A DNA stretch of 64,000 nt, taken from contig NC_057760.1 in the NCBI RefSeq assembly GCF_004010195.1, forward strand, positions 3,151,954 through 3,215,953, given 5' to 3'. How positions within the stretch are numbered: position 1 is the first letter of the stretch; each line of letters begins with the position of its first letter. Below the pieces are notes generated by a model. That model was given only the letters and a program-made list of their open reading frames with translations. It was not told the origin of the DNA and searched no databases. Below, piece after piece: positions 37,429-64,000 of the stretch. This DNA is from Chiloscyllium plagiosum. Lineage: Eukaryota. The translations under genes were made by a program, and so were the position numbers.

Positions 37429-37551
37429 TCAGCCAAACAGGAGACTCAAATGTGACAGGTTAAGGACAGCCTGTGAAGAGGTTGAACTAGTTGGGTAGCT
37501 CAGTGTGCACTGAGTGTCTCATTCTGACTGTTTTTTGTTTTTCTGTTGCAG

Positions 37552-39783: not shown

Positions 39784-39823
39784 TGTGGTGTGTAACCAAG
39801 CCTTTTTCATTCACTTGCTCTAG

Positions 39824-39975: not shown

Positions 39976-40114
39976 GTAAGGGCATCAAAGTCAGGTGCAA
40001 GAGCTACACAACAAATATCAAGTCAACCTGGGATGGAGTACTGAGGATGGGTCAAGGACCAGACAATAATGCAGGGAGTTCAAGGCCAATATCATAATCA
40101 TTGTGTCTAAAACA

Positions 40115-40433: not shown

Positions 40434-40697
40434 AAACTAGGTGTGAAATTCCAGCACGGTTCTCAAATAACAGGTGCACCACCAGTGTGTTTAATACAGA
40501 TAAATTGTGCTGGTCTCATATGGGGGAATGTTTGATGGGGACAACATCAAAGAGGTTTTACTCTGTATGTAACCACATACTATACAAGTGCTAGGAGTGT
40601 TCAATGGGGACAATGGAGAGGAAGCATTACTCTACCAAATCCCATTCTGTACTGGTGCTGGGAAACTAATTAATACTGATATATTACACTGACCCAC

Positions 40698-42002: not shown

Positions 42003-42416
42003 GCTGCTTGAACGTTACCGAAGGTAAGGACTGGTTTGCACTAAATCATTGAACCCTCATAAAATGCAGCAATATTGTAACTCAGCCCTTCTGTGTAACA
42101 CTGTGTCACACTCTTTTCTCTGAACTTCCTCTATCATTTCGCCCCTACCTCTGATCTACTTACCCTGCTTATTTCATGCTACAATCTTCCTTTATATTGG
42201 GTTTTTAATCTCATATCAACACTTCTGTTCTCTTTTATTTGTGTTAATGTCACATACTGCTCTCTTTCCCATCCTTCCTGTCACTATCCTTTCCCTTCCC
42301 ATCTTGTTCCATCCCCATATCCTGTCCTCATCCAATTCTCTTAATTTCCTGCACGGTCTCAATTCAATCACTCTCCTCCATCCCCCACCTCTCCCTTTCC
42401 TTCCCTTTCCCTCCAG

Positions 42417-42550
42417 GCTGGAGTTTCCAGATGGGATCAGCATACCAGTTCCACAGTTGGCGAGTCTTTGTTCTTGTCTGTGCCTTTCCTTCCGTCTTTG
42501 CGATTGTGGCCCTCAACTTCATGCCTGAGAGTCCTCGCTTCTACCTAGAG
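42417..42550 (+). CDS. SV2A: SV2A coding exon 4
   Basis: ctccag|GC TGG ... GAG|gtaac; WSFQMGSAYQFHSWRVFVLVCAFPSVFAIVALNFMPESPRFYLE. Confidence 0.96.
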
Positions 42551-42644
42551 GTAACTACCACTGTTTCCCCTCTTTCACTACATGCTTGCTTACAATCCTC
42601 AACACGACCCACAGGCACAAGGCTGGCAGAAGATTTTCATTAAT

Positions 42645-43000
42645 TTAGAGAGCTTTACTCTGTATCTAATCCCATGCTGTCCCCATACTGAGTGTTTGAT
42701 GAGGATACTGCAGAGAAGGCTTAACTCTGTTCCAAAAGCTGTGCTCTCCCTGTCCTGGAGTGTCTGATGGGGACACTGTAGAGAGCTCTTTACTTCCAGT
42801 TTAAAAAACTAAGAGTTTTACTTTCAGTTTAAAAGAGTAGACAGAATGTTTTTCTGTACGTAACCCCACGATGTACTTGTCCTGCGAGTGTTTGATGGGG
42901 ACTGTGTAGAGTAAGCTTTACTTTGTTTAAAAGAGTCAAGGCAGTTTTACTCTGTATTTCACCCTGTGCTGTACCTTCCTTGACTGGAAATGAGAGTTGT
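42645..43000. repeat. Degenerate ~69-bp satellite (also ~40520-40660, ~44830-44939, ~45584-46530)
   Basis: Consensus GGGAGTGTTTGATGGGGACAGTGTAGAGGGAGCTTTACTCTGTATCTAACCCNGTGCTGTNCCTGTCCT. Confidence 0.8.
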
Positions 43001-43236
43001 ATTTCCTTCATAATGTGATGTGGAATGAGATGCTGTATGAGTCTCTGTCTTGAGTTTATTGCTGTGATATTGGAACTGCTAGTATTTGGATCCAAGTAGT
43101 TCACGCCTGGAAAGGTGTCAGCACTGCTCACATTAGAGGAACTACCCGACAGAGAGAGACAGTGACAAATCTGATTAGTCTGAAAAGTTTGCAGATTATT
43201 CCAGCAGAGTGACCTGCTCTATCTATCTTCTGACAG

Positions 43237-43326
43237 AATGGCAAACACGATGAGGGCTGGATGATTCTCAAACAGGTTCATGACATCAACATGAGGGCCA
43301 AAGGCTTCCCGGAACGGGTCTTCTCT
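43237..43326 (+). CDS. SV2A: SV2A coding exon 5
   Basis: tgacag|AAT ... TCT|gtgag; NGKHDEGWMILKQVHDINMRAKGFPERVFS (not in ORF track, translated by hand). Confidence 0.95.
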
Positions 43327-43474
43327 GTGAGTATCTTGATTTGGTCACAACTCACTGAACTTTGAGTTAATGATAGGCTTTTCAGGTTGTGGCAAGGCTA
43401 GCTTTCTTTAATAAACTAGTCACTGCATAGAGATTTCCCTCCTCTCTAAATTCCAGATCATTGGATATTGATCT

Positions 43475-43870
43475 GCGACTGGGCTTGTATACCCTTGAGT
43501 TTAGAAGACTGAGAGGGGATCTGATTGAGACATATAAGATTATGAAAGGATTGGTCACTCTGGCAGCAGGAAACATGTTTCCGCTGATGGGTAAGTGCCG
43601 AACCAGAGGACACAGCTTAAAAATACGGGGTAGACCATTTAGGACAGAGATGAGGAATGCTCTGCCCCAGAGGGCAGTGGAGGCCCAGTCTCTGGATTAA
43701 TTTAAGAAAGAGTTGGATAGAGCTCTCAAAGATAGTGGAATCAAGGGTTATGGAGATAAGGCAGGAAGAGGATACTGATTAGGAATGATTAGCCTTGATC
43801 ATATTGAATGGCGGTGCAGGCTCGAAGGGCTGAATGGCCTACTCCTGCACCTATTGTCTATTATTGTCTA
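43475..43870 (+). mobile_element. CR1 LINE 3' end
   Basis: LGLYTLEFRRLRGDLIETYKIMKG...RTRGHSLKIRG; CTATTGT tail. Confidence 0.88.
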
Positions 43871-44433
43871 TCATGAGCAGAAGCTCTAGCTGATTTAACC
43901 TCTCTCTCTTATCCGGGGTCATTGGACAATGATCAGGACGAGGAACCCTGGCTAATTTCTCCTTGCTGTCTAACCCAGGGTTTGTGCTGCTAATCAAACA
44001 GGCCATCTTTCTTGGATGTTGTTGAACTCCTGGAGTATTGTAGCAGCTGCCCTAATCCAGAAAAAGTGCAGCCCATTCCGGAATTTGTCTTGTAGGTCCT
44101 GAAGAGTCTCAGTGAACAGTTGCAAGTTAAGTGATGATTGTTATCTGATCTGCAGATTTATTCATCTATAGTCACATTTCATATGATAAATTAAATGTGA
44201 CAATTTTTCTTAAGCTTCACAATCATTTTGTTCCCTTTGAATGAAGGTTATGCTGTGGTTTGATATGTTATTCTGCGTGTCAGTTGTTAGTTTATTCACT
44301 GGTTAGCTCTCCTGCATCCTTTGCATATACATTGCCATAGAAGGTTTTGAACACTGCAGTAAAGTTAATTATGAGTAGTTTTATTGAGCTGCACTATGTC
44401 TTTGCTCAATGCTGATTGTTTGTGTTTCCACAG

Positions 44434-44544
44434 GTAACGCACATTAAAACCCCCAAACAGCTGGATGAACTGATCGAGATCCAGTCAGATACAGGCACTT
44501 GGTACCGACGCTGGCTAGTCCGCTTCACCAACATCTTTCAGCAG
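44434..44544 (+). CDS. SV2A: SV2A coding exon 6
   Basis: ccacag|GTA ... CAG|gtata; VTHIKTPKQLDELIEIQSDTGTWYRRWLVRFTNIFQQ. Confidence 0.95.
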
Positions 44545-44711
44545 GTATACATCCTCAGACATAATTATACATCATGCAGCCAGGAAGCGCATGTATCATT
44601 AGAATTTCCCTCCTATGGGGTGTGGCACACAGATAAAGGTAAAGCAGGGAAATAAGGTTGTGCATTGGATTGACAGCAACGCATTCATTCATTTACTGTC
44701 TGTTTGTGCAG

Positions 44712-44800
44712 GTTCGGAGCAACTTCCTGCAGTGTTTCTCAATCCAGTACCGCCGTACAACATTCCTTATGATGGCAGTTTGGTTCACAATGGCCTTTAG
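44712..44800 (+). CDS. SV2A: SV2A coding exon 7
   Basis: gtgcag|GTT ... AG|gttgg; VRSNFLQCFSIQYRRTTFLMMAVWFTMAF(S). Confidence 0.93.
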
Positions 44801-44939
44801 GTTGGTTTGTTATTCAGTCCTGGCAGACTGTGTGTTTGACGGGGTGTGGAGGAAGAAGGAGAAGGAGTTTATATCTAAATCCATGCTATACTTTTCATAG
44901 GAGTGTCTGATGGGGATGGTATAGCAGGAACTTTACTTT

Positions 44940-45583
44940 TGCTATGGACTAAGCCAGACCACTCAAAACATTTTTAAGCAAGCAGCTCAGACTTTAACTT
45001 TGCCATTTGTTTCAGTAGGTGTGCAGTGATAATTACCCGGATTGAGTTAGCTAGGTTGACTGCTTGATTTTAAAACAGAAAGATTTATTCACAAAATTAT
45101 ACAATGAAACACAAAGAACCGAATAAAGAACCCCTCCAGAACTCAGCCTATCCAATTAGACTTAATTATGCTGTTCCGAATATGCACAACCCAATCACAA
45201 TAAGCAAACTGCCTTTAAAAACCAGTATAAATGGAACATATGCTTACAGGTTGAAGTTGTAGGGCAGAAGAGAGAGGATTTCCACACAGTTCCCTGTTTA
45301 ACTCTTCACCAGGTCAGACTGAACTAAAACTGCTCAGTTCAGCTAGAGAGCTGACCATTCCCCTTTCTTATTCCAGGTCACTTCTAAAACATGTCCACTT
45401 TGGCCTGAAGTCTCATCTGCTTACATATAAACAAAAGGCCTCTCAAAATCCTTTTCATCTCTGTGCCAAACCTGACTGATCGGAGCCTGGCCCAGTTAAT
45501 TACCCCTCTGAAAAAAATCAAGGACAGAGTCTCCTTGAGCCAACGAACAACTTTTAGAGAAAAAAGGAACAAGCTTTGTGACA
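44940..45583 (-). mobile_element. Solo LTR, 644 bp, inserted in the 69-bp satellite
   Basis: TG...CA termini (TGCTA...TGACA) with 4-bp TSD CTTT; minus-strand AATAAA near 45084. Confidence 0.8.
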
Positions 45584-46530
45584 CTTTGTATCTGACGATG
45601 TGCTGTCCCTGTCCTGACAGTGTTTGATGAGGGCAGTATAGAGAGAGCTTTATTCTGTATCAAACCTTGAGAATGTTTGATGGGAACAGTGTAGAGAAAG
45701 CTGTATTCTCTATCTAACCCCATTCTGTTCCTGCTCTGACAATATTTGATGGTACAGGTAAAGGAATCTTTACTCTGTCTCTAAACTTGTGGTGTACCTG
45801 CCCTGGCAGTGTTTGATAGGATAGGCAGAGAGCTTGACTTTTAGTTGAGAAAGGAGGCAGCTTTACTTTGTATCTATCTTGTGCTGTCCCTGTCCTGGGA
45901 GTGTTTGATAGGGACAGCATCAAGGTAGCTTTACTTTCAGTTTAAAAGAGGAGTTTATTCTGTTGTTAATGTCCTGGGAGTATTTGAGAAGTGTAGAATG
46001 AGCTTTATTCTGTATCTGACCCCATGCTTTCCCCATCCTGTGAGTGTATGTTGTTTCTGGGGAGTAGGGGTGCAGGAGGGAGATAGTATAAAGGGTGTTT
46101 TAGTGTAACTAACCCTGTGCCTTACCCGAATTGTGAGTGTTGACTGGGACAGTGTTAAGGAAGTTTTATTTCTATTTATTTATAGTTTTAAAAAGTAGAG
46201 GTAGCTTCACTATTTATCTAATCTTGTGCTGTCCCTGTTCCGAGAGGGTTTGACAGGGGAGAGTGTAGAGGTAGCTTTACTCTGTATCTCACCCTGTGCT
46301 ATCACTGTCCCAGGAGTGTTTGATGGGGACAGTGTCAAGGGAACTTTACTTTCAGTTTAAAATAGTAGAGAGAGTTTCTTCTGCATATAACCCCATACTG
46401 TGTCTATTCTGGGAGTGTTTGGATGGGGAAAGCATAGGATGAATTTACTCCATATCTAACCTGCACTATACTTGTTCTGGGTGAGGTTGATTGGAACAAT
46501 GTAGAGAAAGCTTTTACTCTGTAACCAAAC
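45584..46530. repeat. Degenerate ~69-bp satellite block
   Basis: Repeated GTGTTTGAT.GGGACAG...GCTTTACT.TGTATCT. Confidence 0.85.
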
Positions 46531-46600
46531 TGATGTTTCTGAAATACAATCGGAGTGTGGTTGCCACACAGCCTTCTGATACAAGCTCTGTGTTCTTCAG

Positions 46601-46765
46601 TTACTATGGTCTGACAGTGTGGTTCCCGGACATGATCAAACATTTGCAGATGATGGAGTACTCCTCACGCACTAAAGTCTTCTACAAGGAGAAGGTTGAA
46701 CATTTCACCTTTAACTTTACACTTGAAAATCAAATTCACAAGAATGGTGATTACTACAACGACAA
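46601..46765 (+). CDS. SV2A: SV2A coding exon 8
   Basis: cttcag|T TAC ... AA|gtgag; YYGLTVWFPDMIKHLQ...EHFTFNFTLENQIHKNGDYYND(K). Confidence 0.95.
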
Positions 46766-47369
46766 GTGAGTGCCCACAAAATTACATAAAAGACACGGAG
46801 AGTCCTAGGTGTAATATTAGAGTCTTAATGGAAGCACAACCTTCCCTATAGCTGTGGGCACGGGTTGTCTTCCAGACGGATCCACTCCGAGGGACAGGGA
46901 AAGCAATGGAGTTGAGCAGGCATCACACTCCACCTAATGTTATGGCCTCACCAGATGTGAAGCTGGGAATCAGATTGGAAACTCTAGTTGATCTCTATGT
47001 GAGCTGAGATTAGAGATCAGATGTTCCCAGTCCTTACGGTGTGGATTATCTTACCATTCATTTACACATTGCGGATCTGTTTGACATTACCCGTCTATGC
47101 TTGGTTTGGTATGAAAATCTTAAAACTGTCCTTTCAGGGCAAGGCTTCAAAAGTCCATCTTACAACCCCCATGCAGGGTCTGTGAGCTGGAATTTAGGGG
47201 TCACAAGCTCAGAGGCAGCTAGGCTGCAATGTTGCTTGGGATCCCTCACTCACACCAAGGTCTTGTCTCTCACTCTCCCTATGCTCACAGAGGAGTTAGA
47301 ACAATTTTCATGCTGAAAGCACAGCATTAAGAGATAATTATGATATTATTTTCTTGTTACCTTGGACAG

Positions 47370-47503
47370 ATTTATTGGGATGAAGCTGAAATCAGTGATA
47401 TTCGAGGACTCCCTGTTTGAAGAATGTTATTTTGAAGACATTACCTCGAGTAACAGTTTCTTCAAGAACTGCACCTTTATCTCAACACTCTTCTACAATA
47501 CAG
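47370..47503 (+). CDS. SV2A: SV2A coding exon 9 (luminal pentapeptide-repeat domain)
   Basis: ggacag|A TTT ... ACA G|gttta; FIGMKLKSVIFEDSLFEECYFEDITSSNSFFKNCTFISTLFYNT. Confidence 0.95.
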
Positions 47504-47872
47504 GTTTACTAGCTGCATGTCTTGTGCTTGTTACTACCAACTGCTCTCACTTCCACTCCATGTAACTGTGTTAAATGGTGAGAGCTTGTTTGTATTATCA
47601 AGGGGAACCTATGGGCATCTGTCAGAAAGTAGGCTGTCTGAAGCTCTTCCCAATATTAATTGGAACAGCGTGCTATGGACAGTGTCTCTGAGTGGACTCA
47701 CTGTGCTTGAATGGGGAATATATGTATGTTCGGGGCTGGAAGTTTAATTAGAGGATCTGCTCCTGATTAGTACTCAGATGTAGGGTGAAGTGGGGGAACT
47801 GGATTGTCAGTTGTCTGGAGAGTTAGAATGTCCTTGCGATGTCATGCTGATGAACTGTTATTGTTTATACAG

Positions 47873-48076
47873 ATTTCTTTGACTATAAGTTGATGGGCTG
47901 CCGTCTGATAAACAGTACGTTCTTGCACAGTAAGGAGGGCTGTCAGCTTGACTTCAGCGATGATAACAATGCCTACATGATCTACTTTGTTAGCTTCCTG
48001 GGATCTCTAGCTGTACTGCCTGGAAACATAGTGTCTGCTCTTCTCTTGGACAAGATCGGTCGGCTTAGGATGCTGG
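47873..48076 (+). CDS. SV2A: SV2A coding exon 10
   Basis: atacag|AT TTC ... CTG G|gtgag; FFDYKLMGCRLINSTFLHSKEGC...LAVLPGNIVSALLLDKIGRLRML. Confidence 0.95.
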
Positions 48077-48309
48077 GTGAGTGGCAGCAGTAGTAAATGA
48101 GGTATATGGAATTGTGTCTCATTCTTCAGGGCTCCAGATGTTTTGATTGATGTGTAAGTGCCTCCTTACACCTTACTGCTAGCCCTGTCCTAGCCAGTCA
48201 AGTTATACCATATAACTGTGCCATACCATAATCCAGATGATAGATTTTCTTGAGCTTTGTAGTGTGTAATAACTTTTCTCTCTCTAATCTTTTTTCCCCC
48301 TACCGCTAG

Positions 48310-48469
48310 CTGGCTCCAGCACACTCTCCTGCATCAGCTGTTTCTTTGTGTCCTTTGGTAATAATGAGTCTGCAATGATCGCACTGCTCTGTCTATTCGG
48401 GGGAGTCAGCATTGCTTCATGGAACGCACTCGATGTCATTACAGTGGAGCTCTATCCATCTGATAAGCG
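48310..48469 (+). CDS. SV2A: SV2A coding exon 11
   Basis: cgctag|CT GGC ... CG|gtatg; GSSTLSCISCFFVSFGNNESAMIALLCLFGGVSIASWNALDVITVELYPSDK(R). Confidence 0.95.
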
Positions 48470-48562
48470 GTATGAGTCAGTCTCTTGCAAGGGTGCTGGT
48501 TTCCTGGTAATGTTACCTCTACCTTTTCTTTGTCAACCATGGGCTGCACCCCTCCCTTGGAT

Positions 48563-48735
48563 TGGTTTAGCTCAGTTGGCTGGATAGCTGGTTTGTGAAG
48601 CGTATGATGCCAATAGCGTGGGTTCAATTCCCATCACTGGCTGAGGTTACCCTGAAGGACTCTCCCCTTACCTGAGGTATGGTGGCCCTCATGTTAAATC
48701 ACCACCAGTCTTCTCTCTCTCTAATGAGACAGCAA
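48563..48735 (+). mobile_element. tRNA-derived SINE (second family)
   Basis: A box TAGCTCAGTTGG, B box GGTTCAATTCC; homologous to 23460-23705. Confidence 0.65.
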
Positions 48736-48971
48736 AGTTGTTGGTACATGTGTTTAAGTTTCTGTATCTTCTGCCTGATGGAGAGGTTGGAAGAGAGCAT
48801 TACCAGGGTGGGAGGAATCTTTGATGTTGGCAGCCTTTCCACAGCAATAAGAAGTGTTGATGGAGTCCACGGGTGGGAGGTTGGTTTTCGTGATGGTTCG
48901 AGCTGTGTTGATTCTGTTTTCTTTTGCCCTGTTTTCTGTTAATTAAATCAGTGTTTTTTTTATTCTGCTAG

Positions 48972-49155
48972 GACCACAGCCTTCGGATTTCTCAATGCTC
49001 TGTGTAAGCTGGCGGCCGTACTGGGCATCAGTATATTCCAATCCTTTGTGGGGGTCACCAGAGCAGTGCCCATCATATTGGCCTCTGTTGCCCTGGCATT
49101 GGGCAGTTACCTGGCTCTAAAACTCCCAGAGACTCGTGGCCAGGTGCTGCAGTGA
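48972..49155 (+). CDS. SV2A: SV2A terminal coding exon
   Basis: tgctag|G ACC ... TTAFGFLNALCKLAAVLGISIFQSFVGVTRAVPIILASVALALGSYLALKLPETRGQVLQ TGA. Confidence 0.96.
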
Positions 49156-52115
49156 GTCTGGCTTCAGCCAGAGCCCCTGTAGATGTAGACACTGTGACTC
49201 ATCTTCCTCCGTTCTTTCATATTGTTTTTGTATGTTTTCCCATGTGGACAAGAAATGAAACTCTATAGAACTCATTACCAACTCCTGCAGATGTAAATAA
49301 ACCCTTCTGGTATTTGTGTACACAAATCTCACTGTACAGACCACAGTGGTACAAGGTGTAGGAGGAGCACAGAACCCATAGAGTAGAATAACCTGACAAC
49401 CCCCAGAGCACAAATCATCTGCCATGTAAGCTCAGGAATGGCAGTGTTATGTATGTATTTCCTGGATTATTCTCAAAGTGTAAATACTGTGTGGTTGAGA
49501 TTCCAGGCTCAATCCTGAGGCATAGTTTGCTAGGCCCTAATCATGTGATCTGTACAGTGATCCAATTTTTCATTTACTGGTATGAGGCAGAGTTTGTGCA
49601 ATTTTTAGTGTAGCTGTCCAGAGTAACCTTACCCAGTTAGATTCAATACAATAATCAAGTCCGAGGGTGAAGCACAGGGCTGTTGGGTACGATGGGGAAG
49701 CACAGGGAGAATTTATTCCTTCCAATTTGAAACTGGTGATTACTGGAGAGTATGTGTGTGTGTGTGAGAGAGATGTGTTGAGGGGCAAAGGAGTAAAGGG
49801 TTGTGGCTGGCTTGGTGTGCGGGAAGTGATAGAATCATCACAGTCACTGGTTAATTCCTAACCAGACCCAATTAATGAACCTAAGCACACTAACTGAGCC
49901 CTTTGAGTCTGGTCATCATTTACAAATGAAATATTAAAATCAGAATCTTATTACAAGTTGAAACTCCTTTCCCTTTTCCATCCCTCACTCCTTGTGTCTC
50001 CCTTTCCTGTACCTGTCTCGACCCATGGTGCTCACTTAACAGTAGGCCGATGTGGTGACAATCAGTGGCTCTGTGGCTGTTGTAAGGAGTGATCCATTGT
50101 CAATCGCCAAATATTTTTCTACTCTGCGTCTCGTTTTAATTCTCTGGTGAGAGGTTTGTTCAGACTTGTGAATGCTATAGATTTAGAAACTAGTATGTGT
50201 GAGCGTGTAACTGTTTTTGTGCAGTTGTGCGACTATTCCTTGCTGCCTTGTTGTCTGTCTGTGTAAAACCCGGTGATAGATGGAGGTTATCTGTATAGTT
50301 TCAGATATAATAGAGTACAATTGTAGTGTGTCTGAATTTTAGCTGTTTTGTATTATATTTAAAGAAAGAGGCCTCTCAATGGCAAAGATCTACTCCAAGC
50401 TGTAACAAAATAAATAAAGAACTGTGGACCATCCATTGCTGGCTATGCCCCTTATCTTAATTGTTTTGGATTGCCTTTGATCTATCTTACCCGAGGAGCT
50501 ACAGTTACTTTAACACTCAGGATCGTGAAGAGAAAAATCAAGTCAGTCTCCTGCACTCTAACTGGACACTGGATGAAAATGGGTTGAGGACCCAACAGTC
50601 AAACCTTACCAACACACTGTTTTGATTCACACATTTGGATCACCACCCAGGGAGGAAGTTCAATGCTCAAGAAGCTTTTATGAGGCAGCTGTGTCACTTT
50701 AAGAAACTAGAGAACCTGAGATTAGTGAGGTCTTCAAAACTACAAGGGATTTCAACAGAGTATATGGGGGAAAACAAGCAGAAGACCCAGAAACCAAAGG
50801 ACACAAATTTAAAAGTGAAAGGGGAGATGACTTTCATGCGGTCAGTTGTTGTAATCTGCCTGGATGAGCAGATTTACAAATAATATTTTAAAGGAAATTG
50901 AATAAATCCTTAAAATGGTAGGTTTGCAGGACTTGGGGAGAGTATGACAAATCGAACAATTCTTTCTAACAACTAGTATAGGAGTGATGAGCTAAATAGA
51001 TGCTTTCTGTTCTGATTTATTTCACATGATAGAGATAATTGAAATTGCAAGGCAAACAAATTTATTTTCTTGATCAATTGCCATATTTAAAGCAGCACAT
51101 GACCAAAGTCTTGCCTTGTTGGAACATTTCAGCAGTGTGTAATATGACAGTGACTCCTGTCTGAATCAGTCCTTTTGTCCTGGGGCTTGCATAACCTACT
51201 CAGAGCCCTTCAGTCTTTTGAAAGTGCTTCCAGTTTGACTGCCACATTCAGGTCATGTTTGGACCCTCCCAGACATGCCGGGCTCCTGTCGAAGNNNNNN
51301 NNNNNNNNNNNNNNNNNNNNNNNNNNNNNNNNNNNNNNNNNNNNNNNNNNNNNNNNNNNNNNNNNNNNNNNNNNNNNNNNNNNNNNNNNNNNNNNNNNNN
51401 NNNNNNNNNNNNNNNNNNNNNNNNNNNNNNNNNNNNNNNNNNNNNNNNNNNNNNNNNNNNNNNNNNNNNNNNNNNNNNNNNNNNNNNNNNNNNNNNNNNN
51501 NNNNNNNNNNNNNNNNNNNNNNNNNNNNNNNNNNNNNNNNNNNNNNNNNNNNNNNNNNNNNNNNNNNNNNNNNNNNNNNNNNNNNNNNNNNNNNNNNNNN
51601 NNNNNNNNNNNNNNNNNNNNNNNNNNNNNNNNNNNNNNNNNNNNNNNNNNNNNNNNNNNNNNNNNNNNNNNNNNNNNNNNNNNNNNNNNNNNNNNNNNNN
51701 NNNNNNNNNNNNNNNNNNNNNNNNNNNNNNNNNNNNNNNNNNNNNNNNNNNNNNNNNNNNNNNNNNNNNNNNNNNNNNNNNNNNNNNNNNNNNNGTAATG
51801 TAATGTAATGTAATCTAATCTAATCTCTAAATCGCCCCTCTGGACCCAAATGTATTACTCCTCTCTCACCATAAATCGTTCGTTTTAGTCAGTGTTTTAG
51901 GTTGACATAAATAATCAGTGGGATGGTGGCAGTTTCCCTTTCCGAGAGAAGATTAACAAAGTATTTGGGCTGTTTAATTAATCAAGTGGTTTTTCATCTT
52001 TCTATGTTGTGGGGTTATTAGATTCAATGTTTTACATGGCCCCAATGGGGCTGACAACCTCTGTGTTATTCCCCCAGCAATAAAACTATCAGAACACTGT
52101 TTTGTAATGGTGAAA

Positions 52116-52121
52116 AATAAA
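52116..52121 (+). terminator. Candidate distal SV2A poly(A) signal (alternatives near 49296 and at 50409-50418)
   Basis: AATAAA with upstream TGTA and downstream TG-rich sequence, near the end of unique sequence before the repeat block. Confidence 0.35.
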
Positions 52122-52487
52122 CTTCTATTTGATGAATTGTGTTTCCAGTTCCAAAGTGTTTCACAGTCAATAAATTGTCCTTAACATGCTGCTGTGTAAA
52201 TGAATATATTAGTCAATTCACCTAGAGCAAATTGTTGCAATCATTAGGGAGTTAACTGCATACTTAAACAGTTTAGCTGCTATTTGTTCTGTGAGAAAAC
52301 TCCAAAAGAAAGCTTTCTGTTTTTCTTCAAATTAAGTGATGGACCCTTCACGCCACTTGACAGGCAATGAATTGTCAGTCTGGGTCATAAACTGAAATCC
52401 TGGAATGGGGCTTGAACCCGCAACTGAATGATTCAGAAATTACAGCAAAAAAGCCAGATCCGTAAACAATTAAAGTAACGATGCAAG

Positions 52488-53340
52488 TTGGAGAAAGTGA
52501 GGACTGCAGATGCTGGAGATCAGTCGAAAAGTGTGGTGCTGAAAGAGCACAGCCGGTCAGGCAGCATCCAAGGATCAGAGTTAAAAATCACACAACACCA
52601 GGTTATAGTCCAACAGGTTTAATTGGAAGCACTAGCTTTCGGAGCATCGCTCCTTCATCAGGTGGTAGTGGAGGGCTCAGTCCTAACACACAGAATTTAT
52701 AGCAAACATTTACAGTGTGATGTAACTGAAATTATACATTGAAAAATTGATTGTCTGTTAAGTATTTCATCTGTTAGAATACAGTGATAGTTTCACTTCT
52801 TTCATGTGTAAATCACAAAACCTTTTTAAAAAAAAGTTGCGTTCTCGGGTTAGCTGTTAACAATGGTGATAGCTAGATAATATGTTGAAGGTATTGGCCC
52901 CCTGTGTTCTCTGTCTATGACCTGATGTTTAGATTGATTCTAATCTAAAAAGTGAGATAACAGAGTTTTATATAAATTCATGCAGTTTTTGAGCTCAGAG
53001 TTCTACATGAATGTATGCAGTTTTTGAGCAAAGTACAATGTAACCCTGCAAGTACAAATTCACCCCACAAAATATATGTGTGCATGTGGGTCTTTGTCTG
53101 TGTGTGTGTGTGTCTGGGGTGGGGGTTGTGAGTGTGAGAAAGTGTATGTGTGTGTGTGTGTGTGTAGTGAGTGCAGAGTGTCTTAAGTCTGTGAGAGGGT
53201 GCATGTGTGAGTGTGAGAGTGTGTGTGGGTGTCTGTGTGTGCGTATGTGTGTATGTGTGCGCATCTGTGTGTATGTGTATCCATGTGTATGTGTGTATAG
53301 GAGTGCCTGTGTGTGTGTGAGAGTGTGTGTGTGCAGGAGT
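52488..53340 (-). mobile_element. Penelope-like element end(s) with intact minimal hammerhead motif and (TG)n-rich region
   Basis: 52488-52577 matches the GATGCTGCCTGACC family; 52580 onward is a different family carrying the hammerhead. No coding remnant seen, so PLE assignment is by motif only. Confidence 0.6.
52630..52664 (-). ncRNA. Minimal type I hammerhead ribozyme motif
   Basis: 5'-CAC CUGAUGA A GGAGC-GAU-GCUCC GAAA G CUA^GUG-3': intact core, 5-bp stem II, 3-bp stem I, palindromic AGCU helix III. Confidence 0.75.
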
Positions 53341-53431
53341 ATCTTGTTTTATCTGGTTAAGATATAGGGGAAGCTGAATTGGTAAAAGCTTGCTAAAGAA
53401 GAGGCTGCCCAGTTGATCTCTCCGAAAGACC

Positions 53432-54490
53432 ACATAACAGAGCAGCAGGAGTAGGCCATTCAGCCCATTTTGTTTGGTCTGCCATTCAATGAGATTATGG
53501 CAGAGCTGATCGTCCTCAACTCCATTTTCCTGCCTTTTTCTCTATAACCCTTTATTCCCTTACTGATTAAAAATCTGTCTATCTCTATCTTGAATACACT
53601 TAACCATCCAGCCTTGACAACCTTTTGTGATAAAGAATTATACAAATTCACCAAGAGAAGAAATTCTTCATCTCTGCCTTAAAAGGGTGACCCCTTATTC
53701 TGAGATTATGCTGCATGATCATGGATTTTCCCACAAGGGGAAACAATCTCTCTGCATCTAACTGTTGTGTCCCCTAAAGACTTTTATGTTTCAATAAGGT
53801 TGCTTCCAAGTCTTCTAAACTCCAATGAGGACAGACCCAACCTGGGCAGCACGGTGGCTCAGTGGTTAGCGCTGCTGCCTCGCAGCACCAGGGTCCCAGG
53901 TTCAATCACCAGCCTCGGGCGACTGTCTGTGTAGAGTTTGCACATTCTCCCCGCGTCTGCGTGGGTTTGCTCCGGTTTCCTCCCACAGTCCAAAGATGCG
54001 CGGGTTAGGTGAATTGCCATGCCAAATTGCCCGTAGTGTTAGGTGCATTAGTCAGAAGGAAATAGGTCTGGGTGGGTTACTCTTCAGAGAGTCTGGTTGG
54101 GCTGAAGGGCCTGTTTCTGCACTGGAGGGAATCTAATTTACTCGATGCCACCTCATAAGTCAGTTCCTCCATATCTGAGGTCAGCCTCACAAACCTTCTC
54201 TGTACTATCTTCAATGTCATTTTCATTTCCACAGAGAGGGACCCAAAACTGTTCATTGTGGTCTAACTGGTGCCTTGTACATTTTTAGCAAATGCCTGGA
54301 CTTCTCTACATTTATACTCAACTCCCTTTGAAATAAAGACTAACATTCCATTTATCTTCCTTCTAATATGCAGAATCTTTGAGATTTATGCATGAGGTTT
54401 TCTAATTCTGTCTGTGTTGTAGTTCTTTACAGTCCTTTTCAATTTAAATAATATTCAGCTCCTCTATTCTTCCTGCCAAAGTGCATTCCC
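53432..54490 (-). mobile_element. Decayed CR1 LINE 3' part interrupted by HE1
   Basis: LYNSLSQKVVKAGWLSVFKIEIDRFL..KGIKGY; AATGGCCTACTCCTGCT 3' end. Confidence 0.8.
53843..54137 (+). mobile_element. HE1-type V-SINE
   Basis: GGGCAGCACGGTGGCTCAGTGGTTAGC head, V domain. Confidence 0.85.
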
Positions 54491-54699
54491 AATTCTGAAA
54501 AGAAAGCAATCTATATCATTTCAGGGGGAAACCTGTTTGTTCTTTTGGTAGATTGATTGAAGGAACATCTTAAGGTTGTGTTTCCTGAGCAAGCAAGACT
54601 TCAAAGACACTTGGGTATTGTTAGTGACTTGACCATATGTGCTAGAACATCAGAGCAACAGACCCCAGATCATCTTACACTTTATCATTTCTAATCATT

Positions 54700-55260
54700 G
54701 AATATTACAACATAGAAAGAGGCCCTCAGTTTCCATGCCAGTCATCAAGTACCCATCTATTCTAACCCCATTTTTCCAGCATGTATGCTGTGTTATGTCA
54801 AGTGCTCAGTTAAATTCTTCTTAAATGTCTTGAGGGTACTTGCCTTTATTATCCTTTAGGCGGTCAGTTCAAGAGACCTGCTACCTTCTGATTAAAGTGT
54901 ACAAAGTAATGAAGGGCATACACAACATAGACTGGGAGAAATTTTCCCCTTAGTAAACTTCAATGCAAACTATCAGGGGGCACAGTTTTAAGGTAAGCAC
55001 ACTCTGGGTGAAAATAATTTTCCTCAAATCCCCTCTAAACTTCCAAAATGTTATCTTAAAACTTAGTCTCCTAGTTATTAATCGATTTAGTAAGGGGAAA
55101 AGTTTCTCAATATTTACCTTGTGTATGCCACTCATAACTTTGTACACTGCAGTCAGACCGTCCCCCGTCCCCCCCCCCCTCAGTCTGCGCTATGCAAAAC
55201 AACCTCAGCTTACTGCGTCTCTCATCCGAGTTGAATTCCTCCAGTCCCAACAACATGAAT
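54700..55260. mobile_element. CR1 3' fragments (minus-strand copy with a short plus-strand CR1 piece at ~54890-54995)
   Basis: YKVMSGIHKVNIEKLFPL...FRGDLRKIIFTQ; TIRGHSFKV on the opposite strand. Confidence 0.65.
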
Positions 55261-55681
55261 AACCTCTTGGTCAACGTAGTTGCTTTTCTTCCAGAAGGCT
55301 AATTTCTGCAAAGTTAGTTTTTCTTTTTTCTTAAATAGTGTTTGTGTGTATTTTGGGGAAATTTAAACCTTTGTTCTTAACATTTTGATTAAGTTTTGTT
55401 TTGGTGATAAACCTATAGTTGTGCATGTTAAAAAAAAACCTATTTGGTAAATCCTGTTGTTTAAAAATTGATATGGATAAAGTATTTAATTAGTGAAAGA
55501 AAAACAGAAGTGGCTGCAGAAACTCAGCAGGTCTGGTAGTGTCTGTGGAGGGACAAAGTTAATGTTTTGATTTGAACATGACTCTTTTTCAGAATAATGA
55601 GGGTTAGAACACCGAAGAAGAATCATATCAGATTTGATTGATTGTTGTCACATGTACTGATATACAATGAAAAGTGTTGTT

Positions 55682-56438
55682 GTGGTTCTGTTCGCTGAGC
55701 TGGGAATTTGTGTTGCAGATGTTTCGTCCCCTGTCTAGGTGACATCCTCAGTGCTTGGGAGCCTCCTGTGAAGCGCTTCTGTGATCTTTCCTCCGGCATT
55801 TATAGTGATTTGTCTCTGCCGCTTCCGGTTGTCAGTTCCAGCTGTCCGCTGCAGTGGCCGGTATATTGGGTCCAGGTAAATGTGTTTGTTGATAGAATCT
55901 GTGGATGAGTGCCATGCCTCTAGGAATTCCCTGGCTGTTCTCTGTTTGGCTTGTCCTATAATAATAGTGTTGTCCCAGTCAAACTCATGTTGCTTGTCAT
56001 CTGCGTGTGTGGCTACTAAGGATAGCTGGTCGTGTCATTTCGTGGCTAGTTGGTGTTCATGGATGCGGATCGTTAGTTGTCTTCCTGTTTGTCTTATGTA
56101 GGGACAACACTACTATTATAGGACAAGCCAAACAGAGAACAGGCAAGGGATTCCTAGATGCAGGCACTCATCCACAGATTCTATCAACAAACACATCGAC
56201 CTGGACCCAGTATACCGGCCACTGCAGCGGACAGCTGGAACTGACAACCGGAAGCGGCAGAGAAAAACCACTATAAATGCCGGAGGAAACAACACAGAAG
56301 CGCTTCACAGGAGGCTCCCAAGCACTGGGGATGTCACCTAGACAGGGGACGAAACGTCTGCAACACAAATTCCCAGCTCGGCGAACAGAACCACAACAAC
56401 GAGCACCCGAGCTACAAATCTTCTCACAGACTTTGAAG
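55682..56438. mobile_element. Penelope/Poseidon-like element as a diverging inverted pair, with 14-bp TSD
   Basis: TGAAAAGTGTTGTT at 55668-55681 and 56439-56452; minus arm translates YIRQTGRQLTIRIHEHQLAT...HEFDWDNT..IGQAKQRTAREFLEAWHS (GIY-YIG C-part). Confidence 0.88.
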
Positions 56439-56850
56439 TGAAAAGTGTTGTTTTATGTGTCTTACAGGCAGATCATACCATACAAAGTGCATCAGGGAGG
56501 AGAATACAATGCAGAATAGAGTGTTACAGCTGCAGAAAAGATGCACAGAGAAAGAGAGAGAGAGAGAGAGAGAGATCAGAATTAACATTTGAGATACCCA
56601 ATCCAACCACTGATAACAGTGGGGAAGAAGCTGTTCTTGAATCTGTTAGAATTTCTATTCAAACTTTTATATCTTCTGCCTAATGGAAGAGGTGAAAGAG
56701 AGTATAACTGGAGTGGGAAGGGGTCTTTGATAATGTTGGTTGTTTTCCTGAGGAAGCGAGAAGTATAGATGGAGTCAATGGAGCCGTGTTCACGACTCTG
56801 TAATTTCTTGTGGTCTCGCGGGAGCAGTTGCCATACCACGTCTGATGCAT
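56439..56850 (-). mobile_element. Rex/Babar-like LINE 3' fragment (its extreme 3' end lies at ~55630-55681)
   Basis: SIDSIYTSRFLRKTTNIIKDP...LPLGRRYKSL...NRFKNSFFP. Confidence 0.75.
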
Positions 56851-57084
56851 CAAGATAAGATGCTTTATATGGTCTGTTTTTGTCTCCAATAGATGCTTCC
56901 AGATCTGCTGAGTTTCTCCAGCAATTTCTGTTTTTATTTTAGATTTTCATCATCCGCAGTATTTCACTTTGATTAGGTTGGTGACTTTGGTAACTGGACA
57001 GAGTATATTTATTTTATGTGTGACTCATCAAACAATGGGACTAGAGAGACAGTGCACTTTTCTCCAGGCCCAGTCACAGCAATA

Positions 57085-57990
57085 AATTGAATTGAATTTA
57101 TTGTCACAGTCTTGCGAGCGATACAGGCAGATCACAGAGTTAAGTAGCATAGATAAGCAATTAATAGGTAAACAGCGGCAAAAACAAAAACACAGATACA
57201 GGCGAATGTTAAAAGTTTGTGAGTCCGTTCAGTATTCTAACAACAGCAGGGTAGAAACTGTTGTGAAACCGGCTGGTGCGTGTGTTCACGCTTCTGTACC
57301 TTCTCCCCAGTGGTAGAGGTTGTAGAAAAACATTGCCAGGGTGGGATGGTTCTTTGAGAATGCTGGTGGCCTTTCCCTGACAGTGGGTCTAGTAGATGGA
57401 TTCTATAGATGGGAGGTTGGCCTTTGTGATAGTCCGGGCCGAGTTCACCACTCTCTGTAACCGTCTCTGATCTTGAATGGTACAGTTGCCACACCAGGTA
57501 GTGATACATCCAGACAGAATGCTCTCGATGGCGTACCTATAAAAATTGGCAAGGGTATTTGCCATCATGCCAAATTTCCTCAGCTGCCTGAGGAAGAAGA
57601 GACGTTGTTGGGCCTTTCTAACCAGTGTGTCCACATGACGAGTCCAAGAAAGCTTGTTGTGAATGACCACTCCCAGGAGCTTAACACTCTCCACTCGTTC
57701 CACCTCTGTACTGTTGATGTGTAGGGAGGCATGAGTAACATTCAACTGAAAGTCAATAATGAGTTCCTTCACTTTGCCAGCATTGAGAGCTCGATTGTTC
57801 TCAGTGTACCATTTTTCCAGGTCTTCCACCTCCCGTCTGTAGTCTGTTTCGTCGCCGTCTGAGATTCGACCGACTGTAGAATCTTCACTGATTGTGGCCT
57901 GTGGGTCAGGAAACTGAGGATCCAGTTGCAGAGTGTGGGGCTTAGTCTGAGATCACTAAGTTTAGTAATCAGTCTCGAGGGGATAATGAG
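57085..57990 (-). mobile_element. Rex/Babar-like LINE fragment
   Basis: [13 protein letters not shown]...VERVESVKLLGV...KAQQRLFFLRQLRKFGM...FYRYAIESILSGCITTW. Confidence 0.85.
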
Positions 57991-58309
57991 ATAATAAAAG
58001 AGGAAGTAAAAGGAAAGAGGTTTTCATCGAGACAACAGTGAGATGTTGCGACATCTGTGGAAGTGGGATGAACACATCAGGGAGAATGGAATAAAAGGTT
58101 TGGTTGATGGGCTAGGAAGAGGTTTCAGTGCAACACAAGTATTGACGCTCACCCGATTAGCCTTTTATTATGCAGCAAATTTAATGCAAACTACCACCTG
58201 GTCAGATTTCAAGCTTCTGCAAACACTCCAAAAATGTGTGCATTCTTGTTTTGATTTGAGTCGGGCATTCACTTTATTGTATCCTTTTAAGCATAAAATG
58301 AAAAACACC

Positions 58310-58815
58310 TCCTTCACTGTTTGATCACACAACATTGCCCTTTGATGTGAAGGGCACTGCTTGTCACTAGCCACTTGGGTGTTTCCTTTTCTTCCTGGGT
58401 GGTGGAAATTGAATAAAGATTTGTACACCTTGTGTCTTTCACTGTGTCTCACACCTGCGCACACACACACAACATGGGGGCGGAGGAATAAATAAGCAGT
58501 TAGGAGGTAGTGTGGGGGTAATATAGAGAAAATAATATTAAAATAAAAGATTTGTACACCTTGTGTTTTCCACTGTGTCTCACATCTACACACACAACAT
58601 GGTTGCTGGGAAAAATAAGTACTACCGCAGTTAGGTGGTAGTGTGAGAGTAATATCTAAAAAACGTATATAAAAAAAAAAGATTTGTACACCTAGTGTCT
58701 TTCAGTGTGTCTCACATCTACACACACAATATGGGTGCGGGGGAATAAATAAGTACTACCGCAGTTAGGTGGTAGTGTGGGGGTAATATATAAAAAAAAG
58801 TTTATTAAAAAAAAA
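58310..58815 (+). mobile_element. Tx1-like 3'UTR with triplicated terminal ~135 bp
   Basis: Reverse complement of the 25161-26238 3'UTR; AAAGATTTGTACACCT recurs at ~58415, ~58546, ~58678. Confidence 0.75.
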
Positions 58816-58820
58816 TGGTG

Positions 58821-59154
58821 TGGGCGGCACGGTGGTTAGCACTGCTGCCTCACAGCGCCAGAGACCCGGGTTCAATTCCCGCCTCAGGCGACTGACTGTG
58901 TGGAGTTTGCACGTTCTCCCCGTGTCTGCGTGGGTTTCCTCCGGGTGCTCCGGTTTACTCCCNNNNNNNNNNNNNNNNNNNNNNNNNNNNNNNNNNNNNN
59001 NNNNNNNNNGCTCCGGTTTCCTCCCACAGTCCAAAGATGTGCAGGTCAAGGTGAATTGGCCATGCTAAAATTGCCCGTAGTGTTAGGTAAGGGGTAAATG
59101 TAGGGGTATGGGTGGGTTGCGCTTCGGCGGGTCGGTGTGGACTTGTTGGGCCGA
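58821..59154 (+). mobile_element. HE1-type V-SINE fused to the 48-bp array
   Basis: Head and V domain; ends at GGGCCGA. Confidence 0.88.
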
Positions 59155-62100
59155 CCACACTGTACCAGGGGTGAGTGACCGTCACTCACTGTCCATCTAA
59201 CCCCACACTGTACCAGGGGTGAGTGACCGTCACTCACTGTCCATCTAACCCCACACTGTACCAGGGGTGAGTGACCGTCACTCACTGTCCATCTAACCCC
59301 ACACTGTACCAGGGGTGAGTGACCGTCACTCACTGTCCATCTAACCCCACACTGTACCAGGGGTGAGTGACCGTCACTCACTGTCCATCTAACCCCACAC
59401 TGTACCAGGGGTGAGTGACCGTCACTCACTGTCCATCTAACCCCACACTGTACCAGGGGTGAGTGACCGTCACTCACTGTCCATCTAACCCCACACTGTA
59501 CCAGGGGTGAGTGACCGTCACTCACTGTCCATCTAACCCCACACTGTACCAGGGGTGAGTGACCGTCACTCACTGTCCATCTAACCCCACACTGTACCAG
59601 GGGTGAGTGACCGTCACTCACTGTCCATCTAACCCCACACTGTACCAGGGGTGAGTGACCGTCACTCACTGTCCATCTAACCCCACACTGTACCAGGGGT
59701 GAGTGACCGTCACTCACTGTCCATCTAACCCCACACTGTACCAGGGGTGAGTGACCGTCACTCACTGTCCATCTAACCCCACACTGTACCAGGGGTGAGT
59801 GACCGTCACTCACTGTCCATCTAACCCCACACTGTACCAGGGGTGAGTGACCGTCACTCACTGTCCATCTAACCCCACACTGTACCAGGGGTGAGTGACC
59901 GTCACTCACTGTCCATCTAACCCCACACTGTACCAGGGGTGAGTGACCGTCACTCACTGTCCATCTAACCCCACACTGTACCAGGGGTGAGTGACCGTCA
60001 CTCACTGTCCATCTAACCCCACACTGTACCAGGGGTGAGTGACCGTCACTCACTGTCCATCTAACCCCACACTGTACCAGGGGTGAGTGACCGTCACTCA
60101 CTGTCCATCTAACCCCACACTGTACCAGGGGTGAGTGACCGTCACTCACTGTCCATCTAACCCCACACTGTACCAGGGGTGAGTGACCGTCACTCACTGT
60201 CCATCTAACCCCACACTGTACCAGGGGTGAGTGACCGTCACTCACTGTCCATCTAACCCCACACTGTACCAGGGGTGAGTGACCGTCACTCACTGTCCAT
60301 CTAACCCCACACTGTACCAGGGGTGAGTGACCGTCACTCACTGTCCATCTAACCCCACACTGTACCAGGGGTGAGTGACCGTCACTCACTGTCCATCTAA
60401 CCCCACACTGTACCAGGGGTGAGTGACCGTCACTCACTGTCCATCTAACCCCACACTGTACCAGGGGTGAGTGACCGTCACTCACTGTCCATCTAACCCC
60501 ACACTGTACCAGGGGTGAGTGACCGTCACTCACTGTCCATCTAACCCCACACTGTACCAGGGGTGAGTGACCGTCACTCACTGTCCATCTAACCCCACAC
60601 TGTACCAGGGGTGAGTGACCGTCACTCACTGTCCATCTAACCCCACACTGTACCAGGGGTGAGTGACCGTCACTCACTGTCCATCTAACCCCACACTGTA
60701 CCAGGGGTGAGTGACCGTCACTCACTGTCCATCTAACCCCACACTGTACCAGGGGTGAGTGACCGTCACTCACTGTCCATCTAACCCCACACTGTACCAG
60801 GGGTGAGTGACCGTCACTCACTGTCCATCTAACCCCACACTGTACCAGGGGTGAGTGACCGTCACTCACTGTCCATCTAACCCCACACTGTACCAGGGGT
60901 GAGTGACCGTCACTCACTGTCCATCTAACCCCACACTGTACCAGGGGTGAGTGACCGTCACTCACTGTCCATCTAACCCCACACTGTACCAGGGGTGAGT
61001 GACCGTCACTCACTGTCCATCTAACCCCACACTGTACCAGGGGTGAGTGACCGTCACTCACTGTCCATCTAACCCCACACTGTACCAGGGGTGAGTGACC
61101 GTCACTCACTGTCCATCTAACCCCACACTGTACCAGGGGTGAGTGACCGTCACTCACTGTCCATCTAACCCCACACTGTACCAGGGGTGAGTGACCGTCA
61201 CTCACTGTCCATCTAACCCCACACTGTACCAGGGGTGAGTGACCGTCACTCACTGTCCATCTAACCCCACACTGTACCAGGGGTGAGTGACCGTCACTCA
61301 CTGTCCATCTAACCCCACACTGTACCAGGGGTGAGTGACCGTCACTCACTGTCCATCTAACCCCACACTGTACCAGGGGTGAGTGACCGTCACTCACTGT
61401 CCATCTAACCCCACACTGTACCAGGGGTGAGTGACCGTCACTCACTGTCCATCTAACCCCACACTGTACCAGGGGTGAGTGACCGTCACTCACTGTCCAT
61501 CTAACCCCACACTGTACCAGGGGTGAGTGACCGTCACTCACTGTCCATCTAACCCCACACTGTACCAGGGGTGAGTGACCGTCACTCACTGTCCATCTAA
61601 CCCCACACTGTACCAGGGGTGAGTGACCGTCACTCACTGTCCATCTAACCCCACACTGTACCAGGGGTGAGTGACCGTCACTCACTGTCCATCTAACCCC
61701 ACACTGTACCAGGGGTGAGTGACCGTCACTCACTGTCCATCTAACCCCACACTGTACCAGGGGTGAGTGACCGTCACTCACTGTCCATCTAACCCCACAC
61801 TGTACCAGGGGTGAGTGACCGTCACTCACTGTCCATCTAACCCCACACTGTACCAGGGGTGAGTGACCGTCACTCACTGTCCATCTAACCCCACACTGTA
61901 CCAGGGGTGAGTGACCGTCACTCACTGTCCATCTAACCCCACACTGTACCAGGGGTGAGTGACCGTCACTCACTGTCCATCTAACCCCACACTGTACCAG
62001 GGGTGAGTGACCGTCACTCACTGTCCATCTAACCCCACACTGTACCAGGGGTGAGTGACCGTCACTCACTGTCCATCTAACCCCACACTGTACCAGGGGT

Positions 62101-64000
62101 GAGTGACCGTCACTCACTGTCCATCTAACCCCACACTGTACCAGGGGTGAGTGACCGTCACTCACTGTCCATCTAACCCCACACTGTACCAGGGGTGAGT
62201 GACCGTCACTCACTGTCCATCTAACCCCACACTGTACCAGGGGTGAGTGACCGTCACTCACTGTCCATCTAACCCCACACTGTACCAGGGGTGAGTGACC
62301 GTCACTCACTGTCCATCTAACCCCACACTGTACCAGGGGTGAGTGACCGTCACTCACTGTCCATCTAACCCCACACTGTACCAGGGGTGAGTGACCGTCA
62401 CTCACTGTCCATCTAACCCCACACTGTACCAGGGGTGAGTGACCGTCACTCACTGTCCATCTAACCCCACACTGTACCAGGGGTGAGTGACCGTCACTCA
62501 CTGTCCATCTAACCCCACACTGTACCAGGGGTGAGTGACCGTCACTCACTGTCCATCTAACCCCACACTGTACCAGGGGTGAGTGACCGTCACTCACTGT
62601 CCATCTAACCCCACACTGTACCAGGGGTGAGTGACCGTCACTCACTGTCCATCTAACCCCACACTGTACCAGGGGTGAGTGACCGTCACTCACTGTCCAT
62701 CTAACCCCACACTGTACCAGGGGTGAGTGACCGTCACTCACTGTCCATCTAACCCCACACTGTACCAGGGGTGAGTGACCGTCACTCACTGTCCATCTAA
62801 CCCCACACTGTACCAGGGGTGAGTGACCGTCACTCACTGTCCATCTAACCCCACACTGTACCAGGGGTGAGTGACCGTCACTCACTGTCCATCTAACCCC
62901 ACACTGTACCAGGGGTGAGTGACCGTCACTCACTGTCCATCTAACCCCACACTGTACCAGGGGTGAGTGACCGTCACTCACTGTCCATCTAACCCCACAC
63001 TGTACCAGGGGTGAGTGACCGTCACTCACTGTCCATCTAACCCCACACTGTACCAGGGGTGAGTGACCGTCACTCACTGTCCATCTAACCCCACACTGTA
63101 CCAGGGGTGAGTGACCGTCACTCACTGTCCATCTAACCCCACACTGTACCAGGGGTGAGTGACCGTCACTCACTGTCCATCTAACCCCACACTGTACCAG
63201 GGGTGAGTGACCGTCACTCACTGTCCATCTAACCCCACACTGTACCAGGGGTGAGTGACCGTCACTCACTGTCCATCTAACCCCACACTGTACCAGGGGT
63301 GAGTGACCGTCACTCACTGTCCATCTAACCCCACACTGTACCAGGGGTGAGTGACCGTCACTCACTGTCCATCTAACCCCACACTGTACCAGGGGTGAGT
63401 GACCGTCACTCACTGTCCATCTAACCCCACACTGTACCAGGGGTGAGTGACCGTCACTCACTGTCCATCTAACCCCACACTGTACCAGGGGTGAGTGACC
63501 GTCACTCACTGTCCATCTAACCCCACACTGTACCAGGGGTGAGTGACCGTCACTCACTGTCCATCTAACCCCACACTGTACCAGGGGTGAGTGACCGTCA
63601 CTCACTGTCCATCTAACCCCACACTGTACCAGGGGTGAGTGACCGTCACTCACTGTCCATCTAACCCCACACTGTACCAGGGGTGAGTGACCGTCACTCA
63701 CTGTCCATCTAACCCCACACTGTACCAGGGGTGAGTGACCGTCACTCACTGTCCATCTAACCCCACACTGTACCAGGGGTGAGTGACCGTCACTCACTGT
63801 CCATCTAACCCCACACTGTACCAGGGGTGAGTGACCGTCACTCACTGTCCATCTAACCCCACACTGTACCAGGGGTGAGTGACCGTCACTCACTGTCCAT
63901 CTAACCCCACACTGTACCAGGGGTGAGTGACCGTCACTCACTGTCCATCTAACCCCACACTGTACCAGGGGTGAGTGACCGTCACTCACTGTCCATCTAA
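59155..64000. repeat. 48-bp tandem array, about 101 apparently identical copies, continuing past the window end
   Basis: Unit CCACACTGTACCAGGGGTGAGTGACCGTCACTCACTGTCCATCTAACC; the ORF track shows an invariant 16-aa repeat. Confidence 0.98.

Follow-up and report, generated by a model that had tools for sequence, protein, structure and literature searches.

Downstream of the SV2A gene of Chiloscyllium plagiosum, on the opposite strand, lies a 35-base sequence that looks like a minimal hammerhead ribozyme, and it raises the question of whether the motif does something at its host gene or was simply carried there by a mobile element. We examined this question in the whole 64,000-nt stretch of DNA around the site (the window) and in four public sequencing runs (of 24 listed), which were mapped on positions 51830-53075. 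The runs cited below are DNA contigs of the same species (X5), contigs of a second, related species (X10), and a poly(A) single-cell library (X21; one sample, about 2% of the run, 7,045 reads mapped). The fourth, X22, comes from the same sample as X21 and gave no mapped reads, so that it carries no weight here. With high confidence, we regard the sequence as an intact minimal hammerhead motif within an isolated, truncated member of a very abundant repeat family, likely a Penelope-like terminal repeat; at the SV2A locus it is probably an inert passenger.

The motif at the SV2A locus

The sequence-only reading that drew attention to this site had described a minimal type I hammerhead of the Penelope kind, cut between 52633 and 52632 and dependent on a partner copy. 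Read directly from the DNA, the minus-strand motif agrees with that description letter for letter, and we predict the cut at the same position (Table 1). Its assignment to the Penelope kind is supported by the presence of all sequence traits of minimal hammerheads. The CUGANGA, GAAA and NUH elements are intact, A 52654 stands unpaired between positions 9 and 10.1, G 52653 and C 52641 form the G10.1-C11.1 pair, the palindromic stretch at 15.2-16.2 (AGCU) leaves no loop 3, and helix I is short. The motif in the SV2A flank is a real, intact-looking minimal hammerhead motif.

Table 1. Positions in the window of the hammerhead motif, the repeat that carries it, and neighbouring features
Feature	Position	Strand	Basis
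SV2A last coding exon	48972..49155	plus	matches SV2A residues 683-742, E 1e-25
Three AATAAA hexamers (52079, 52116, 52169), candidate distal SV2A poly(A) signal	52079..52174	plus	sequence
Truncated high-copy repeat; likely 3' untranslated part, pseudo-LTR and tail of a Penelope-like element	52579..53340	minus	loose ends, depth, TG array
Minimal type I hammerhead motif	52630..52664	minus	sequence, descriptor, simulations, fold of 35-mer
Stem I 5' arm	52664-52662	minus	sequence
CUGAUGA core	52661-52655	minus	sequence
Extra A, one base	52654	minus	sequence
Stem II, perfect 5 bp	52653-52649 with 52645-52641	minus	sequence
Stem II loop, 3 nt	52648-52646	minus	sequence
GAAA	52640-52637	minus	sequence
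Palindromic AGCU, without loop 3	52637-52634	minus	sequence
H17 = A, end of CUA triplet	52633	minus	sequence
Predicted cut	between 52633 and 52632	minus	sequence
Stem I 3' arm (stem I = 3 bp)	52632-52630	minus	sequence
ATTAAA poly(A)-signal hexamer, 9 nt after predicted cut	52618..52623	minus	sequence; family poly(T) ends
Poly(A) addition sites of family RNA (reads from the family, not this copy)	52603..52606	minus	X21 reads
GU/U-rich stretch behind the poly(A) sites, putative place of downstream element	52583..52602	minus	sequence
End piece of second hammerhead-bearing family, stops 7 nt short of its predicted cut	52490..52578	minus	self-BLAST, loose ends
Second minimal hammerhead, core 9933, ACGU palindrome, 2-bp stem I	9848-10260	minus	descriptor, Pfam

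The bare 35-mer has a predicted folding energy of -9.1 kcal/mol, stems I and II both forming (z -2.05; 7 of 200 shuffled sequences fold equally well). When the flanks are included, the predicted probability of an intramolecular stem I is 0.007-0.11, and AGCU is mostly paired elsewhere. As the sequence-only reading also held, this architecture calls for a partner copy, and the predicted dimer would be held by three short helices of 3, 4 and 3 bp. In terms of secondary structure only, with no tertiary contribution, the active dimer is predicted to be less stable than two monomers, by 1.9-2.7 kcal/mol for the bare 35-mer and by 23 kcal/mol with flanks. Self-BLAST found no second copy of the 52579-53340 family within the window. 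The other match to our strict hammerhead descriptor, at 9933, has a different palindrome (ACGU) and a different stem I, and therefore would not serve as a partner. According to PMC4209133, minimal hammerheads showed no cleavage as single copies and weak cleavage as dimers. Where an element is complete or in tandem, the AGCU palindromes would thus let two motifs pair and cleave weakly, probably helped by the element's own protein, and a cut at the predicted site would remove the poly(A) tail. The copy in the SV2A flank, with no near partner and facing away from SV2A, likely does neither.

The identity of the host gene is clear from its first (E 7e-75) and last coding exons, the latter ending in a stop codon at 49153-49155. 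Four plus-strand AATAAA hexamers (49296, 50409, 50413 and 50901) lie nearer to SV2A than the three candidate distal ones, from which they are separated by a 500-N gap (51295-51794). The motif lies 460-550 nt beyond the distal hexamers on the opposite strand, as had been claimed with an approximate distance of 0.5 kb. An RRM-protein gene (1799-5585) upstream of SV2A (32589-49155) and on the same strand is one that we take to be SF3B4, which stands upstream of SV2A in the human genome as well.

The functional tie to SV2A implied by that position finds no support, as the motif is antisense and X21 (about 2% of the run, tissue unspecified) gave 0 reads on the unique flank 51830-52459. Since the motif is on the opposite strand, read-through RNA from SV2A would carry its reverse complement only. 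Co-opted hammerheads, such as those of the Clec2 3' UTR and of amniote introns, fold canonically and lie in sense within a transcript of the host; this motif is antisense to SV2A, lacks helix III and has no Rfam match. It probably does nothing to SV2A.

The copy could alternatively be a working, co-opted element, ending or cutting minus-strand transcription toward SV2A and thereby shielding the 3' end of the gene, but we consider this improbable. It is true that core, stems and hexamer are all intact, that RNA of the family is polyadenylated in vivo behind its own signal (see below), and that a related species has the flank too (an X10 contig covers 51832-52510 with 35 differences and breaks at 52510, before the insertion). 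However, intactness is what the low divergence of the copy predicts. The copy differs from the family majority in X5 at 15 or more of 496 positions (3% or more), so that an intact 32-nt core with stems is expected by chance with a probability of about 0.97^32 = 0.38, with no selection needed. For the same reason, and because the window holds no partner, a special standing for this copy is not supported. Also against co-option are the predicted instability of the dimer, both bare and with flanks, and the frames of 52500-59200, among which no minus-strand host gene was seen by eye.

The host repeat and its relatives

The extent of the repeat is shown from 52579-52581 to 53075, and its far end probably lies near the end of a TG-rich array (53077-53333), at 53333. 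Loose ends accumulate before positions 52579, 52580 and 52581 in X5 (1554, 486 and 420) and in X10 (2362, 723 and 662), which places the end of the family 52-54 nt past the predicted cut; X21 RNA has 384 loose ends before 52579. The summed contig depth in X5 amounts to 0.33-8.6 million over 52586-53075 as against 9.1 in the quietest bins of the unique flank, a figure that is not a copy number but whose contrast with the unique flank marks a very abundant repeat, and the depth picture in X10 is the same. The repeat is hugely amplified in Chiloscyllium plagiosum and a relative. Its copies are numerous and dispersed, and their 3' end is well defined and lies a short way past the hammerhead, as is characteristic of endonuclease-bearing Penelope-like elements (PLEs). 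No coding remnant was detected by tblastn in or near the copy, and four trial left ends revealed no target-site duplication of at least 6 nt. A share of the family copies runs past 52579 with a common extension (agreement 0.40-0.64), in which 9 nt of the sequence directly following the ATTAAA hexamer recur in inverted form. This extension could fold over the poly(A) sites, and it may be an optional PLE tail.

Among the 40 best-supported of 240 variants in the family, those inside the motif are confined to 52646 and 52647, both in loop II, those just outside stem I are at 52665, at 52667 and in a common insertion behind 52629, and none is a compensatory base-pair change. We infer that none of the 32 core and stem positions of the copy departs from the majority of the family.

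A motif-pattern search of metagenome contigs yielded two loci, on the marine contigs L001 and L002. Their motif is identical to 52630..52664 at 33 of 35 positions, with both changes in loop II, and their stem I has one extra (fourth) pair; outside the motif, no DNA similarity to the repeat is detectable. As L001 and L002 are 99.6% identical over 677 nt, we count them as one element. L002 contains a GIY-YIG-type frame with a C-x3-C-xx-C linker, which ends about 750 nt upstream of the motif. The frame has no Pfam match; over 52 residues it shares 40% identity with the Pfam-confirmed GIY-YIG piece in our window, and a homologue search returned one near-identical unnamed protein among 8 candidates. 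L001 carries an inverted reverse transcriptase piece (RVT_1, E 1.5e-5, below the curated cut-off). In PMC8557442, a CX2-5CxxC linker is given for Neptune and Nematis, inverted truncated neighbours are described, and the role of PLE hammerheads is called unclear. The marine sequences (L001 1-1050 and L002 1-1470) thus appear as a Penelope-type element with nearly the same ribozyme motif in unrelated flanks.

The recurrence of the motif suggests a strong constraint on these 35 nt across distant elements. The reverse transcriptase and GIY-YIG frames are absent from the truncated copy and are seen in L001 and L002, which share the motif only. It is through this shared motif in an otherwise unrelated marine element that the 52579 family can be connected with coding PLEs, and a Penelope-like retroelement is the likely source of this terminal repeat. 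A probe from the tail side of the repeat found 0 loci in viral contigs and 0 in metagenome contigs, and the motif patterns found 0 and 9 loci in viral contigs and 0 in prokaryote genomes. The 9 viral loci were dropped as chance matches, as no stem II or matching stem I was seen; by eye, 8 look like the ends of RNA-phage coat genes and 1 lies in a portal-like gene.

Instead of being a truncated coding element, the repeat may constitute a separate non-autonomous family, similar to retrozymes or SINEs and mobilized by the enzymes of Penelope elements, although we find this unlikely. The copy has no coding remnant, and upstream of 52670, next to the motif, the summed depth drops to about a third (from 2.9 to 0.9 million in X5 and from 7.2 to 2.3 million in X10), so many copies may be short. 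In addition, a preprint (10.64898/2026.07.22.740005) derives animal retrozymes from the pseudo-LTRs (pLTRs) of PLEs. However, high depth persists as far as 53075, and the 680 nt that precede the motif here are similar in length to the 750 nt that separate frame and motif in L002. By the definition in that preprint, a non-LTR retrozyme has at least two units in tandem, every one with its own complete hammerhead; the copy beside SV2A stands singly, with no such array. We thus retain the truncated terminal repeat as the preferred reading.

By comparison, a chance match of a short descriptor has almost nothing left to recommend it: Rfam has no hammerhead match at the gathering score in the whole window (and none at E<=10 over 52000-53400) and the folding z-score is only -2.05, but the strict descriptor, which has 2 matches in the window (52661 and 9933), has 0 in 400 first-order Markov simulations of it, and these simulations together with the 33 of 35 identities in the otherwise unrelated marine element, beside the restriction of the listed variants to the loop, effectively refute it. 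CTGANGA by itself is not enriched in the window (42 observed, 47.4 expected). Five Rfam rows at E<=10 are below the gathering score and were taken as chance.

The window also holds remains of other hammerhead-bearing families. The end piece of the second family that abuts the repeat is marked by loose ends before 52490 and behind 52578. The ends of both families are joined in other contigs too, in line with the insertion of PLEs next to each other described in PMC6765202. The motif at 9933 lies directly behind, and in line with, a GIY-YIG fragment (Pfam E 5.8e-5). An inverted end piece of the second family is present at 10195-10271, and more decayed copies occur at 610, 15425 and 41665. At 37026-37428, tandem units of about 69 nt from the end of the second family are each broken inside the hammerhead core, none being complete, and this array looks like a broken mini-retrozyme. 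Within an inverted pair of a third repeat family (55676-56401), the hammerhead at 55751 is decayed; the frame that precedes it resembles an endonuclease C-terminus and has no Pfam match. The end of the window (59155-64000) is occupied by a 48-nt unit repeated 101 times at 100% identity, which may be a satellite of very recent origin or an artefact of assembly.

Family RNA and the poly(A) signal

The X21 reads come from family copies, not from this locus, with 361 of the 7,045 at least 99% alike to this copy. Poly(T) begins before 52603 in 879 reads and before 52606 in 713 (together 1,592 of 7,045), which corresponds to poly(A) sites 15 and 12 nt after ATTAAA and 27-30 nt past the predicted cut. 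The putative place of the downstream element (Table 1) follows the established geometry of vertebrate poly(A) signals. This copy has no genomic A-run at 52603-52606 (4 A in 20 nt, longest run 2). The depth in the motif bin is 1,982 versus 295, larger in the ribozyme-sense direction, where the larger direction is read as minus-strand RNA, as in most stranded libraries. Upstream of the poly(A) sites, the depth decays over about 350 nt, as expected for a true 3' end. Hence, in this run most RNA of the family has the ribozyme sense, and its poly(A) tails are added 27-30 nt beyond the predicted cut, which is a new point. Priming on A-rich copies elsewhere could account for poly(T) ends, and the counts are those of the loose ends listed, beside which there are 1,598 further rows.

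As the tails are added 27-30 nt past the cut, tailed reads that run through the motif derive from uncleaved RNA. No pile-up of read starts or ends is seen anywhere in X21, the cut site included, although a product of 30 nt would escape a poly(A) library made from fragmented RNA. The insertion behind 52629 is found in 645 of 2,940 RNA reads as against about 4% of the DNA depth in X5, and because it is far commoner in RNA than in DNA, a few loci may dominate the family RNA.

The ends of the genomic copies tell something about the template from which they were made. They reach 22-27 nt past the poly(A) sites and 52-54 nt past the cut, which suggests that the template was neither cleaved nor tailed there. 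This agrees with PMC11167929, in which uncleaved RNA is the main insertion template and cleavage needed protein. The copy beside SV2A would have been made by reverse transcription from the element's tail, stopping about 760 nt later, before the coding sequence.

Poly(A) signals follow some, but not all, hammerheads in this collection. The marine element has AATAAA 18 nt after its predicted cut, whereas A(A/T)TAAA is absent from the 90 nt that follow the cut in the families at 9933 and 55751; the coupling is therefore not general to all families here. Our search, which covered mainly open-access literature, found no published description of a poly(A) signal behind a PLE hammerhead, and a term search of PMC2377424 gave no passage on polyadenylation.

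Comparison with known hammerheads

In the accessible part of PMC4209133, the minimal hammerheads in the pLTRs of metazoan PLEs share with our motif the type I core, the unpaired base between 9 and 10.1, the G10.1-C11.1 pair and the palindrome without loop 3, and they are likewise mostly single dispersed motifs of truncated elements. Stems I and II measure 3 and 5 bp here and 4-5 and 7-8 bp in the minimal hammerheads of Schistosoma. In contrast to the repeat in the SV2A flank, a poly(A) signal behind the motif is not mentioned in that part of the paper, and two of its supplementary files have no shark entry. Among the papers listed by our literature search, none dealt with PLE ribozymes of sharks.

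The copy also resembles insertions of the Neptune/Nematis type, as described in PMC8557442, in having a hammerhead near the 3' end, a short tail, and truncated and inverted neighbours. Their CX2-5CxxC linker is seen in L002, whereas the copy in the SV2A flank is without a coding part. With the Anolis Poseidon element PAc, as presented in PMC11167929, our family shares an insertion end downstream of the cut, which implies an uncleaved template, and the lack of RNA ends piled at the cut. However, the reading frame of PAc starts inside the hammerhead, whereas both ATGs in our motif run into stops within 15 codons, and it is the SV2A-flank motif, unlike that of PAc, that is followed by a poly(A) signal. 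A similar arrangement is known for the hammerhead in the 3'-UTR of rodent Clec2 (PMC6765202 and PMC6155905), where the cut also lies upstream of the poly(A) signal and cleavage removes the signal or the tail. The Clec2 ribozyme, however, is a discontinuous type III hammerhead in sense orientation in a host mRNA, whereas ours is of the minimal type I, belongs to a mobile repeat and runs antisense to SV2A.

The motif in the SV2A flank is thus an ordinary further example of the PLE hammerheads described in 2014, with a modest lead concerning polyadenylation. The locus itself matters little, as it is one of very many Penelope-type hammerhead remnants; what has been added to the earlier reading of it is the boundary of the element and the ATTAAA 9 nt after the cut. 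A poly(A) signal at this distance behind the cut fixes where the family RNA ends, and cleavage would remove the tail. As a speculation, which we hold only tentatively and think rather doubtful, the terminal repeat in this group of PLEs might act like the R segment of a retrovirus, with transcription beginning shortly before the hammerhead and stopping at the poly(A) signal that follows it; the threefold depth drop upstream of 52670 is the observation that bears on such a start. Each end of a full transcript would in that case bear a hammerhead, the two serving as dimer partners for each other in cis, and cleavage would take off cap and poly(A) tail at once to leave a unit-length, circularisable RNA, while the very numerous dispersed copies would seed the genome with ready-made poly(A) sites. 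If the coupling of hammerhead and poly(A) signal held across families, this would suggest that the ribozyme serves to switch the state of the RNA, not to make the template for insertion.
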